From Candidatus Poribacteria bacterium (GTDB lineage Bacteria; Poribacteria; WGA-4E; PCPOR2b): DNA of 64,000 nt. The stretch lies in assembly GCA_965208325.1 (NCBI GenBank), contig OZ242326.1:2464001-2528000 (forward strand). The letters run 5' to 3'. Position 1 is the stretch's first letter. Each line of letters opens with the position of its first letter. Positions 42,357 to 46,257 of the stretch are shown here, piece after piece. Under the pieces are notes generated by a model, which was not told the DNA's origin, searched no databases, and saw only the letters and a program-made list of their open reading frames with translations. Both the position numbers and the translations under genes were made by a program.

Positions 42357-43199
42357 ATGCAGATTGGAATTTTCGCGAAGACGTTCATTCGCCCAACGCT
42401 TGAAGAAACCTTGGATGCTGTGAAGGCATACGGATTGGGTTGCGTACAATTCAACATGGTATGCGCCGGGCTGCCGTCTATGCCTGACCGCATAAAGGTT
42501 GAACACTGCGACGCCATACGCCGAGAGATGTCATCGCGGGATGTTACGATGGCAGCAGTGTCCGGTACGTTCAACATGATTCACCCCGATGTTCAGAACC
42601 GCCGCACCGGGCTGCGGCGGCTGCGTGAACTCGCATCTGTGTGCAATCGGCTTGGCACATCGGTGATTACGCTGTGCACAGGCACGCGGGATCCCGAAAA
42701 CATGTGGCGCCGCCACCCTGAAAACGATTCGCCGCAGGCGTGGAAAGACCTGATCACATCAATGAGGGAAGCGTTGCAAATTGCAGAAGAACACGGCGTC
42801 ACACTCGCTATTGAACCCGAAGTGTCGAATGTAGTGGATTCAGCGGGGAAAGGCCGCCGTCTGCTTGATGAGATGCAGTCGCCGTATTTGAAAGTGGTGA
42901 TGGATGCCGCCAACATCTTTCACACTGGCGAACTGCCGCGCATGCGCGAAATTCTTGACGAGGCGTTCGCTCTCTTAGGCGAGTATATCGTTATTGCACA
43001 TGCCAAAGACTTGAGCCGTGATGGCGAAGCGGGGGATGTAGCCGCCGGTCGAGGCGTATTGGATTACGACTATTATCTGTCCCTGCTACACAGAACCGGA
43101 TTCGACGGCCCCTTGATACTTCACGGCCTTGCGGAAGCAGAGGTTCAAGAAAGTGTGAATTTCCTTCGTGGGAAACTTCAGGGTGTAGATAAGAACTGA
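42357..43199 (+). CDS. Sugar phosphate isomerase/epimerase (TIM barrel, AP_endonuc_2)
   Basis: LAIEPE, MDAAN, AHAKD, G.G.LDY. Confidence 0.85.
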   Translation: MQIGIFAKTFIRPTLEETLDAVKAYGLGCVQFNMVCAGLPSMPDRIKVEHCDAIRREMSSRDVTMAAVSGTFNMIHPDVQNRRTGLRRLRELASVCNRLGTSVITLCTGTRDPENMWRRHPENDSPQAWKDLITSMREALQIAEEHGVTLAIEPEVSNVVDSAGKGRRLLDEMQSPYLKVVMDAANIFHTGELPRMREILDEAFALLGEYIVIAHAKDLSRDGEAGDVAAGRGVLDYDYYLSLLHRTGFDGPLILHGLAEAEVQESVNFLRGKLQGVDKN

Positions 43200-43432
43200 T
43201 TCTCTCTTGTTTTTTCATTTATGAATGTATTTGCCCCGCGGTTGGAAACCGCACCTACCGAAATGTGTGTAAGGAGTTTTCGGCTAGCAGAGCGATGCCG
43301 TTGAGACATCATTCGGTTAATCTAACATAAAATACGGCAATCACATCTACACATGAATCGCCCCGTCAATCGCTCTTTTTCATAGTGATTCAAGTAATAA
43401 TACGTTGAGATTTGCGACCCACCGGATTTTCC

Positions 43433-43462
43433 TTGACACACACTTCCCGGTTATGATACCCT
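43433..43462 (+). promoter_or_regulatory. Putative sigma70 promoter of the leader-hisI-trpE-trpG operon
   Basis: TTGACA (43433-38), 18-bp spacer, TG-n-TACCCT extended -10. Confidence 0.5.
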
Positions 43463-43491
43463 TTAGCAAATAGCAGCGAAAGGCAAGGCTG

Positions 43492-43593
43492 ATGAAATTT
43501 TCGAATCTCCTCCTCCATTCCAATACGGCAACACACAACTGGCATTGGTGGCATTCAATCTGGAGTCGGAGGAGTATGCCTTTGCTGAAATAG
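43492..43593 (+). CDS. His/Trp-rich attenuator leader peptide, 33 aa (MKFSNLLLHSNTATHNWHWWHSIWSRRSMPLLK)
   Basis: Translated by hand; 4 His + 4 Trp codons with core HNWHWWHSIW; below the ORF-track length cutoff. Confidence 0.85.
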   Translation: MKFSNLLLHSNTATHNWHWWHSIWSRRSMPLLK

Positions 43594-43618
43594 AATCCGT
43601 ATTCATTTGATAGTTTTT

Positions 43619-43656
43619 AGCCGTAGGCATACGTCCCGTTGTCTACGGCTTTTTTT
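43619..43656 (+). terminator. Attenuator intrinsic terminator upstream of hisI
   Basis: AGCCGTAGGCA / TGTCTACGGCT 11-bp stem (one G-U) followed by a T run. Confidence 0.85.
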
Positions 43657-43683
43657 ATGCCAACTGTTAGGAGGAAAATCTCG

Positions 43684-44067
43684 ATGCAAATGCTTGACGA
43701 ACTCAAATTCGATTCAAACGGACTCATCCCGGCAATCATACAAGATTACGAGAACAACGACGTACTGATGATGGGTTACATGAACCGAGAAGCGGTGCGG
43801 CGAACGCTTGAATCAGGGCGCGTCACGTTCTGGAGCCGCTCCCGCCAGAAATACTGGGTAAAGGGGGAGACTTCGGGGCACACCCAAGATGTACGCTCGC
43901 TAGCTTTCGATTGCGATGCGGACACGCTTCTCATCAAGGTCGTGCAGAAAGGCGGGGCATGCCACGTAGGGTACCGCTCCTGTTTTTTCCGGGAAGTCTC
44001 CCCCAACGGCAATTCGGCACGCATCGTTGGTACAAAAGTTTTTGACCCGGGCGCAGTTTATTCGTAA
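43684..44067 (+). CDS. hisI: Phosphoribosyl-AMP cyclohydrolase
   Basis: [46 protein letters not shown]. Confidence 0.95.
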
Positions 44068-44145
44068 CCGTGTGGGAGCGGTTTGATGGCCGCAACCAAT
44101 GCCGACATTTGACGGGGCGCCCACAGTTAGCAAGGAGGCTTCTCA

Positions 44146-45630
44146 ATGTATTATCCGACTTTGGAATATTTTCGAGAAAAAGCGCAACACGGCAATTTGA
44201 TTCCCGTTTACAAATCCATCTTGGCGGATATGGAAACCCCTGTATCCGCATTTTACAAAATCGGCGGAGATGAATACGCCTTCCTTTTGGAAAGCGTCGA
44301 AGGCGGGGAAAATCTCGCTCGATACTCCTTCCTCGGCGCAAATCCGTCCACCCTGTTTCAGAGCAAGGGGAATCAGATTAAAATCACGGATGTGCGAACC
44401 GGCAAGATCGTCGAGTGTGAATCGAGGGACGCGCTCACTCAACTCGAAGCACTGATGACTCGCTACCAACCGGTGCAGGTCGAAGGACTGTCCCATTTCC
44501 ACGGCGGGGTTGTGGGCTACCTCAGTTATGATGTCGTGCGGTTGGTCGAAGAATTACCCGATTGCACCGAGGATGACCGGGATTTACCTGATTGCTATTT
44601 CATGACCGCCGATACACTCTTGGTCTTCGACCACGTGAACCACCGGATCAAGGTCATCGCCAACGCACATATTGATGGTGATGTTGACGCAGCGTATGCA
44701 GATGCAATCAACCGAATTGACGTGTTGATTGCGAAACTCAAGCGTCCGCTTCGCACGAATCCCGGCAAGAAAGCGCCAGAGGATAACACCCAAAAACAGA
44801 TTACATCGAATTTCACGAAAGCAGGTTACGAATCTGTCGTCCTTCGCGCGAAGGAGTACGTCGCTGCGGGGGACATCATTCAAGTCGTTCCGTCACAACG
44901 GTTCAGCCGACCGATTTCTGTCGATGCCTTTGAAATCTACCGCGCGCTGCGCACGGTCAATCCCTCGCCCTATATGTACTATCTCAAATTCGCCGGCATC
45001 CAGATTGTTGGGGCTTCGCCGGAGATGATGGTGCGTGTAGAGAACGGACGCGCAGAGACCCGCCCAATCGCGGGTACGAGACCTCGCGGACGCACCCCCG
45101 CCGAAGACGCCGCACTCGCTGAAGAGTTGCTCGCCGATCCGAAGGAACGCGCGGAACATGTGATGCTCGTTGATCTGGGGCGAAACGACCTCGGCAGAGT
45201 CTGCGAATACCACACGGTTCGTGTGAGCGAGATGATGGTAATCGAGCGCTATTCGCATGTCATGCACATCGCGTCGCACGTCGAAGGGCAATTGCGCGAG
45301 GGACAGACCGCTTTTGATGTCATCCGCGCCTGCCTCCCCGCCGGAACGCTGTCCGGAGCACCGAAGATTCGGGCGATGGAGATTATTGAGGAACTCGAGC
45401 CGACGCGGCGGGGACCCTACGGGGGAGCGGTCGGTTACTTTAGTTTCTCCGGCAGCGCAGACACGGCGATTACGATTCGTACCCTCGTCGTCGTGGATGG
45501 TGTTGCCTACATCCAGGCTGGCGCCGGCATCGTTGCGGACTCTGTACCCGAATTCGAATTCGAGGAAACGCTGAACAAGGCGCAGGCGGGATTGAGAGCC
45601 ATTGAATTTGCGGAGGCGGGACTGGAATAA
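44146..45630 (+). CDS. trpE: Anthranilate synthase component I
   Basis: LLESVEGG, NPSPYM, ASPE, PIAGTRPRG, EHVMLVDLGRNDLGRV, GTLSGAPK. Confidence 0.93.
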   Translation: MYYPTLEYFREKAQHGNLIPVYKSILADMETPVSAFYKIGGDEYAFLLESVEGGENLARYSFLGANPSTLFQSKGNQIKITDVRTGKIVECESRDALTQLEALMTRYQPVQVEGLSHFHGGVVGYLSYDVVRLVEELPDCTEDDRDLPDCYFMTADTLLVFDHVNHRIKVIANAHIDGDVDAAYADAINRIDVLIAKLKRPLRTNPGKKAPEDNTQKQITSNFTKAGYESVVLRAKEYVAAGDIIQVVPSQRFSRPISVDAFEIYRALRTVNPSPYMYYLKFAGIQIVGASPEMMVRVENGRAETRPIAGTRPRGRTPAEDAALAEELLADPKERAEHVMLVDLGRNDLGRVCEYHTVRVSEMMVIERYSHVMHIASHVEGQLREGQTAFDVIRACLPAGTLSGAPKIRAMEIIEELEPTRRGPYGGAVGYFSFSGSADTAITIRTLVVVDGVAYIQAGAGIVADSVPEFEFEETLNKAQAGLRAIEFAEAGLE

Positions 45631-45693: not shown

Positions 45694-46257
45694 ATGGTAC
45701 TCATGATTGACAACTACGACTCATTCACTTACAACCTCGTCCAATATCTCGGCGAACTAGGGGCGAATCTTGTTGTCCACCGCAACGACAAAATTTCTAT
45801 TGAACAGGTTGAAGACCTCGCACCTGAGAAAATTGTAATTTCGCCGGGCCCCTGCACGCCGCGCCAGGCAGGCATCTCCTGCGAGTTGATTCGTCGCTTT
45901 GCCGGCCGCTTGCCGCTGCTCGGCGTCTGCTTGGGGCATCAGTGCATCAGCGAAGCCTTCGGCGGCGACGTTGTGCGGGCGGAGCGGCTGATGCATGGCA
46001 AAACATCTATGATTCACCACGACGGCGAGGAAATTTTCGACGAACTGGAAAACCCGTTTGAGGCGACGCGCTACCATTCGCTCATCGTGAAAAAGGAGAC
46101 GCTGCCAGACTGTTTTAAACTCACGGCATGGACCGACCAAGACGAAATTATGGGAATCCGGCACAAGGAACATCCAATCTGGGGTGTGCAATTTCATCCG
46201 GAATCAATTCTGACACACGCCGGTAAACCGCTATTGCAAAATTTCTTGCAAATTTAA
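45694..46257 (+). CDS. trpG: Anthranilate/aminodeoxychorismate synthase component II (glutamine amidotransferase)
   Basis: [33 protein letters not shown]. Confidence 0.9.

Follow-up and report, generated by a model that had tools for sequence, protein, structure and literature searches.

The genes hisI, trpE and trpG of a poribacterial genome lie one behind the other in the window (the whole 64,000-nt stretch of DNA that was analysed) and are preceded by a short reading frame containing tryptophan and histidine codons and by a hairpin with a T run. This locus raises the question whether these elements together form a transcription attenuator and, if so, whether the leader responds to tryptophan only or to histidine as well. 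The initial annotation had proposed the latter, pointing out that the amino acids of the leader match the two pathways encoded downstream, and Pfam searches confirm the identity of the genes on which this proposal was built:

43684-44067, plus strand: hisI, phosphoribosyl-AMP cyclohydrolase (PRA-CH), 127 aa (Pfam PF01502, E = 5.8e-36)
44146-45630, plus strand: trpE, anthranilate synthase component I (Pfam Chorismate_bind, Anth_synt_I_N)
45694-46257, plus strand: trpG, anthranilate synthase component II, a class-I glutamine amidotransferase (Pfam GATase, E = 2e-63)

The gene after trpG encodes a DUF2851 protein and is unrelated. The genome consists of one 4.7-Mb contig, and a whole-genome search returned a single match for PRA-CH, which makes hisI its only gene for this enzyme. 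The gene is present in 41 of 41 relatives and in 171 of the 176 genomes of the phylum, and trpE directly follows it in 30 of 30 first loci. No leaders were seen 5' of trpB, trpA, hisG, hisB, hisA or hisF in the genome of the window. An open frame of 309 aa elsewhere in this genome, at 3974503-3975213, matches HisG weakly, at 22 bits and under the cut-off, and then shows the best PRA-PH (hisE) match in the genome; this frame may be a HisG-like/HisE fusion. In one relative (locus L075 of genome G041, family f10) a long ORF of at least 229 aa ends 12 nt before trpE, and no leader is present there.

The region upstream of hisI contains the following elements, listed with the evidence on which they are based:

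43433-43462, plus strand: probable sigma-70-type promoter, with TTGACA at 43433-38, an 18-nt spacer and TG-n-TACCCT at 43454-62 (inferred from reading the sequence)
43478-43489, plus strand: purine-rich Shine-Dalgarno region of the leader (AAAGG/AAGG), which doubles as the 5' strand of the outer protector helix (minimum-energy folds)
43492-43593, plus strand: leader ORF of 33 codons, 4 of them for Trp and 4 for His (sequence read, ORF listing, homologous leaders in relatives)
43507-43522, plus strand: region 1, which holds the His-9 codon and, as the 5' side of the inner protector helix, pairs with 43561-43574 in minimum-energy folds
43561-43586, plus strand: region 2, in which 43561-74 is the 3' strand of the protector; the antiterminator takes its 5' strand from 43571-86, in the codons that close the leader (S-M-P-L-L) (folds, anchored pair counts)
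43619-43656, plus strand: intrinsic terminator, a hairpin at 43619-43650 with a T7 run at 43650-43656; its 5' arm, 43626-43637, is region 3 (fold energy, covariation)

The leader frame was found just where the initial annotation had placed a 33-aa peptide with interleaved His and Trp codons. It is a translatable short ORF with a start codon and a Shine-Dalgarno region directly 5' of a biosynthetic operon, its translation is MKFSNLLLHSNTATHNWHWWHSIWSRRSMPLLK, and the corresponding ORFs of relatives have 25-36 codons. The cognate codons are clustered ahead of hisI and trpE/G: tryptophan is encoded at 43540-42, 43546-51 and 43561-63, and histidine at 43516-18, 43534-36, 43543-45 and 43552-54. The promoter that had been proposed was kept, with TTGACA as its -35 element, but its -10 element, first read as TATGAT at 13-nt spacing, was replaced by TACCCT, which with its upstream TG after 18 nt fits better. 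An arrangement of TTGACA...TTATGATA recurs 5' of the leaders in relatives. The -10 element is weak, and a consensus promoter scan did not call the leader promoter. The nearest upstream gene ends at 43199, 230 nt 5' of the promoter. On the downstream side hisI begins 28 nt past the terminator, and this gap leaves no room for a hisI promoter.

Folding of the alternative structures predicts a terminator, an antiterminator and a protector, and the mutually exclusive pairings described in the initial annotation do exist. The terminator claimed ahead of hisI is there; the hairpin alone has a folding energy of -19.2 kcal/mol and is followed by the T7 run. A simple terminator scan did not call the hairpin at 43619-43650 because it has a bulge. 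The proposed pairing of 43571-43581 with the 5' arm of the terminator (43626-43637) was also recovered, with a predicted energy of -21.3 kcal/mol before the 3' arm exists, and this antiterminator is at least as stable as the terminator. Since it forms before the 3' arm is made, it could pre-empt the terminator whenever region 2 is free. Taken one sequence at a time, the antiterminator duplex is only weakly significant (z mostly from -1.4 to -3), and for that reason the case for it rests on position and covariation. As for the protector, the proposed helix with 43561-43574 is present in the folds, but it shares only 4 nt with the antiterminator, and most of the overlap is provided by an outer helix in which the Shine-Dalgarno region (43478-89) pairs with 43577-86. 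The inner helix (43507-22 with 43561-74) was seen only in the genus of the window. The position of the 1:2 protector, predicted in the window as these inner and outer helices, is not conserved between lineages: according to the folds, the partner is the Shine-Dalgarno region (GAAAGGTAC) in genomes of families f1, f6 and f7 and the early codons UCACACUCC in family f2. The predicted folding energy of the whole leader is -54 kcal/mol (z = -2.43), a value matched by 2 of 200 shuffled sequences. A conserved segment after the stop codon (43598-43611, CCGTATTCATTTGA; GGA(C/T)TCAT in relatives) pairs with region 2 in some folds; it may act as an extra competing or pause element.

Comparison with relatives provides the covariation evidence. 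In an alignment of 48 sequences (A2), the 12 terminator pairs are of standard type in 96.2% of cells, and 6 of the 12 change on both sides. Neither value was reached in any of 500 shuffles, and in controls in which the pairing was slid the paired share fell to 23-53%. The antiterminator helix, counted over 21 distinct combinations, has 156 of its 168 cells paired, a value that none of 1000 permutations attained. Three of its pairs show changes on both sides; in family f2, for example, C-G is replaced by G-U, and in locus L074 C-G is replaced by U-A and U-A by C-G. The antiterminator pairs were counted on an anchored, ungapped register; the MAFFT alignments A1 and A2 misplace the f2 antiterminator by two columns. 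In 52 leaders the antiterminator strand has a constant location, the final codons of the ORF. The conserved C-terminus of the leader (AGUGUGCCU; S-V/M-P-L-L) can be attributed to an RNA constraint because this strand sits there. A role for S-V/M-P-L-L as a peptide motif was rejected, as it coincides with RNA region 2.

The element recurs 5' of hisI in most poribacterial loci examined, far beyond chance. Leader and terminator were found in families f1, f2, f3, f4 (genus g12), f6, f7 and f9, and the W-H-W-W core with flanking His codons and the terminator precedes hisI in f1, f2, f3, f6, f7 and f9. A reduced form of the leader occurs in genus g12 of f4, with a terminator, and in f8, for which no terminator came up in the scripted search. 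The W-x-W-W core is the most invariant part of the leader, and the N-terminal parts differ between families and show no conservation. No leader was seen upstream of hisI in loci L039, L047, L054 and L055; in L024 the leader is decayed, and in L038 it has a premature stop.

Several relatives show rearrangements of this region. In L023 (G011) and L050 (G136) insertions of about 30-40 nt split W-H-W-W, which gives ...HHWLVPHCEDPENREWH... and ...HWQCEAKTNSARVGRIWWH..., respectively; the inserts, possibly small mobile or palindromic elements, may have inactivated or retuned the sensor. In L011 (relative G023) the leader-terminator unit is tandemly duplicated, about 100-385 nt 5' of hisI, and the second copy opens with the first hisI codons (ATGGAAATTCTA...), joined there to mid-leader sequence, so the 5' end of hisI must have been included in an earlier duplication. 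Leader and terminator are gone in L054 and L055 (genus g15); GC-rich REP-like repeats (GCGAGGGCCTGTCCCTCGCC...) occupy the whole space in L054, and L055 has just one such repeat-like stretch. Short dispersed repeats, such as GTCGAGTATGGAAACTCGACCTACA and ...GTAGGCG(G/T)GGCATCTTGCCCCGC..., lie between the terminator and hisI in L008, L018, L025 and L027. A copy of the latter repeat type is found in the genome of the window at about 3.8170-3.8173 Mb, between trpB and trpA.

Wider searches returned little that resembles the element. An Rfam cmscan of 42800-44300 with E values up to 10 gave four matches, none of them to a leader family, a T-box or a riboswitch; the best was osmY RNA with 23.7 bits against a gathering score of 46.9, covering the terminator only. 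No second copy of the terminator motif was found in the whole genome. A genome-wide scan for small frames rich in W or H was too noisy for use. When public genomes were searched with a back-translated HHWHWW motif, the at least 120 matched loci listed included 117 chance hits in unrelated frames and 3 poribacterial-type leaders; these listed matches are uninformative on other phyla.

If the element is an attenuator, the next issue is whether its histidine codons are meaningful. In the hisI-first leaders of 18 genus representatives, pooled, 60 His residues were observed where 12.6 were expected. This 4.8-fold enrichment ranks behind that of Trp (7.2-fold) and ahead of that of the next residue, Ser (1.7-fold). 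The middle His of W-H-W-W is kept in 33 of 36 distinct contexts and is encoded by CAT in 29 and by CAC in 4 of them, so a synonymous change is tolerated at this position. His is found at leader positions -2 and -1 in 23 of the 36 contexts each and at +1 in 11, the +1 position alternating freely between His and Arg. In at least eight poribacterial families, almost every hisI-first leader has His beside or within its Trp run; the lack of conservation that the initial annotation had named as the mark of a plain tryptophan leader was not what we found. Some features of family f2 point in another direction. Here the codon ahead of the first Trp is GAT, CAT, AAT or TAT, always NAT, which fits an AUUGG:CCAAU pairing, and the upstream His codon CAC falls in region 1. 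In view of these two features, an RNA structural constraint may account for part of the His signal. Moreover, the His codons are single and dispersed without forming a run, and sensitivity to histidine may be low.

A further comparison is with loci in which hisI is missing from the operon. In genus g10 and family f11 leaders stand directly before trpE, with no hisI ahead, and the homologous leader and terminator are kept. The trpE-first leaders of L072 (MQTRWPRSKVISCVKRWWYTSWGRSVPV) and L074 (MRTSDAKKVFQIARNWCWWWRNEVRVCPTPD) have 0 His, that of L071 is frame-shifted and has 0 His in the ATG frame, and that of L073 has 1 His. This contrast by operon content covers no more than two independent lineages within the Poribacteria.

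A second phylum, the Verrucomicrobiota, was examined in the same respect. From a sample of 251 genomes 90 trpE loci were fetched, of which 89 had a trpE match; 24 of these are his-type (hisF-hisI-trpE or hisI-trpE) and 65 trpE-first. The preset rule for calling leaders asked for an ORF that begins with ATG, is no longer than 45 aa, contains two or more Trp, lies at most 330 nt from the first gene and has a hairpin and T run 5-140 nt beyond its end. It detected a leader in 10 of the 24 his-type and in 8 of the 65 trpE-first loci. All 10 his-type leaders have His beside the Trp codons (22 His in 175 residues), for example MKFAWWHHHTERGSNRT, MVTSWHWHDEGVSAGA and MWHFQQHHEFLQIPHHAWWRRISGAVCG. His is present in none of the 8 trpE-first leaders (0 of 127 residues). 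The association of His with operon type has a Fisher p of 2.3e-5, uncorrected for kinship; the distinct peptides number 10 (his-type) and 7 (trpE-first), several of them close variants. The mixed operon hisF-hisI-(x)-trpE-trpG is similar to the poribacterial one in having a terminator and a leader in which Trp and His codons adjoin, but there the leader precedes hisF, is shorter (15-28 aa) and has a sequence unrelated to that of the poribacterial leader. In both phyla the codon class thus correlates with the downstream pathway, His codons occurring with a his gene and being absent or nearly absent where there is none.

We consider it very probable that the element is a ribosome-mediated (leader-peptide) transcription attenuator ahead of hisI-trpE-trpG. 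That the leader senses histidine as well as tryptophan is, judging from the sequences compared here, the best-supported reading and a probable one. It is favoured because the codons of the leader go with the genes of the operon in two phyla and because the logic of the locus requires it: with a single-copy hisI that has no promoter of its own, a switch governed by tryptophan only would shut down an essential step of histidine synthesis whenever tryptophan is plentiful. A further reason given in the initial annotation, that two PRPP-consuming pathways are being co-regulated, is weak and was rejected as unsupported; HisI, TrpE and TrpG do not use PRPP, as is established biochemistry.

A mechanism with dual sensing can be outlined as follows, in which we infer both the stalling and the response to histidine. 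Transcription would start about 22 nt 5' of the leader, and a ribosome would translate the 33 codons while the polymerase proceeds. If both Trp-tRNA and His-tRNA are charged, the ribosome would reach the last codons and mask region 2 (43571-86). With region 2 masked the terminator (43619-50 and U7) would form, and transcription would stop before hisI. If instead the ribosome stalls on one of the Trp or His codons in 43516-43563, region 2 would remain available for pairing with 43626-37, and the polymerase would read through into hisI-trpE-trpG. The known size of the ribosome footprint suggests that a ribosome stalled at 43516-43554 would leave region 2 free, that one at 43561-63 would cover only its first few bases, and that one at the stop codon would cover it. 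Without translation, region 2 would be held by 43507-22 and the Shine-Dalgarno region, and termination would follow. The device would then act as an OR gate, lack of either amino acid raising expression.

Three other readings can be considered. The most serious is that only the Trp codons sense, that the His codons are kept for RNA structure, pacing or by descent, and that hisI is a passenger living on basal read-through. The variable NAT codon at -1 and the use of CAC in region 1 in f2, the flipping of the +1 position between His and Arg, the absence of leaders from the other his genes and the invariance of the W-x-W-W core are all in agreement with it. However, a structural role does not readily explain why His is, besides Trp, the sole strongly enriched residue (4.8-fold), nor why a synonymous change from CAT to CAC is tolerated at the middle His, nor why His is absent or nearly so from homologous leaders that have no hisI downstream. 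The Verrucomicrobiota, with His in 10 of 10 his-type and 0 of 8 trpE-first leaders, add to this difficulty, and a single RNA constraint shared by both phyla is unlikely because their leader sequences are quite different. A single-copy hisI without its own promoter also fits poorly with the role of a passenger. We therefore regard sensing by tryptophan only as rather unlikely, while noting that histidine control of hisI alone is physiologically odd, because hisG, hisB, hisA, hisF and trpBA have no leader here.

In the remaining two readings the product is the peptide itself, or there is no switch at all. The H/W-rich peptide could itself be functional, as an arrest peptide or as a trans-acting leader peptide similar to peTrpL of Sinorhizobium, for which two reports describe a role in trans (PMC7298713, PMC7968998). 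Roles of this kind for trp leader peptides and the conservation of H-W-H-W-W at the amino-acid level would be in line with this, but the N-terminal parts are not conserved across families, the C-terminus (AGUGUGCCU) is explained by RNA pairing as region 2, and the leaders of the Verrucomicrobiota share codon content and not sequence. The link to his genes would also be left unexplained, and a functional peptide is accordingly a very unlikely solution. Still harder to credit is that there is no switch, the hairpin being a constitutive terminator or the end of a small RNA and the short ORF fortuitous. The failure of the promoter and terminator scans to call either site and the lack of a match to an Rfam leader family could be taken to suggest this. 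Against it, terminator and antiterminator are conserved along with the ORF and its regulatory codons, with compensatory changes, across families and in a second phylum, and 230 nt separate the promoter from the end of the upstream gene at 43199.

The preferred reading, an attenuator sensing both amino acids, can be compared with known systems. The trp attenuator of E. coli and Salmonella (trpL; RF00513) likewise has a short leader with clustered Trp codons, alternative 2:3 and 3:4 pairings and a terminator just ahead of the first biosynthetic gene of its operon, which here includes trpE-trpG; its 1:2 pairing and the masking of region 2 by a ribosome at the end of the leader correspond to what is predicted here. 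The element described here differs in that it matches neither RF00513 (Trp_leader) nor RF00514 (His_leader) with E values up to 10, in that 4 Trp codons are interleaved with 4 His codons in a frame of 33 and hisI is the first regulated gene, and in that region 2 lies inside the ORF while region 1 is in part the leader's own Shine-Dalgarno region. Leaders that respond to more than one amino acid are familiar from the enterobacterial thr operon (Thr and Ile codons) and from ilvGMEDA and ilvBN (Ile, Leu and Val codons). In these, too, codons for several amino acids are combined in one leader and starvation for any of them relieves termination, as it would here, but there the amino acids belong to one branched pathway, whereas here unrelated pathways are joined only by operon structure.

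In Sinorhizobium meliloti only the anthranilate synthase operon trpE(G) is described as having a leader and attenuator, the other trp genes being separate and without one (PMC6614838). The absence of a leader from trpBA in the genome studied here is similar to that arrangement. The difference is that the Trp sensor of S. meliloti is described as standing before trpE(G) alone, with no his gene or His codons mentioned in the abstract (PMC6614838). Full-text searches found no literature on a leader with both His and Trp codons or on a hisI-trpE operon, the scope of these searches being such that the classic comparative papers on attenuation, published in subscription journals, lay outside it; nor was a published description of regulation in Poribacteria found in the literature searched. 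The mechanism is a familiar one, and the combination of two pathways is apparently undescribed.

For annotation, the locus provides a small ORF and RNA element unmatched by any Rfam family in our search. It extends leader-peptide attenuation to the Poribacteria, an uncultured, sponge-associated phylum, and it offers a cross-pathway case, in which a single-copy histidine gene has come to lie behind a tryptophan switch and the leader, as a result, appears to read two amino acids that are unrelated. The presence or absence of His codons, matched to the presence or absence of his genes in two phyla, is unusually direct comparative evidence for the tuning of a leader to the content of its operon. 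Whether this amounts to a two-input OR gate whose codon content co-evolves with operon content, His codons coming and going with hisI or hisF-hisI before trpEG in at least two phyla, is a proposal for which we see the arguments as evenly balanced. If it is true, it would describe an old, modular cross-pathway regulon that couples a late step of histidine synthesis to the first step of tryptophan synthesis, and would imply an unrecognised physiological link between the supply of histidine and tryptophan in these bacteria.
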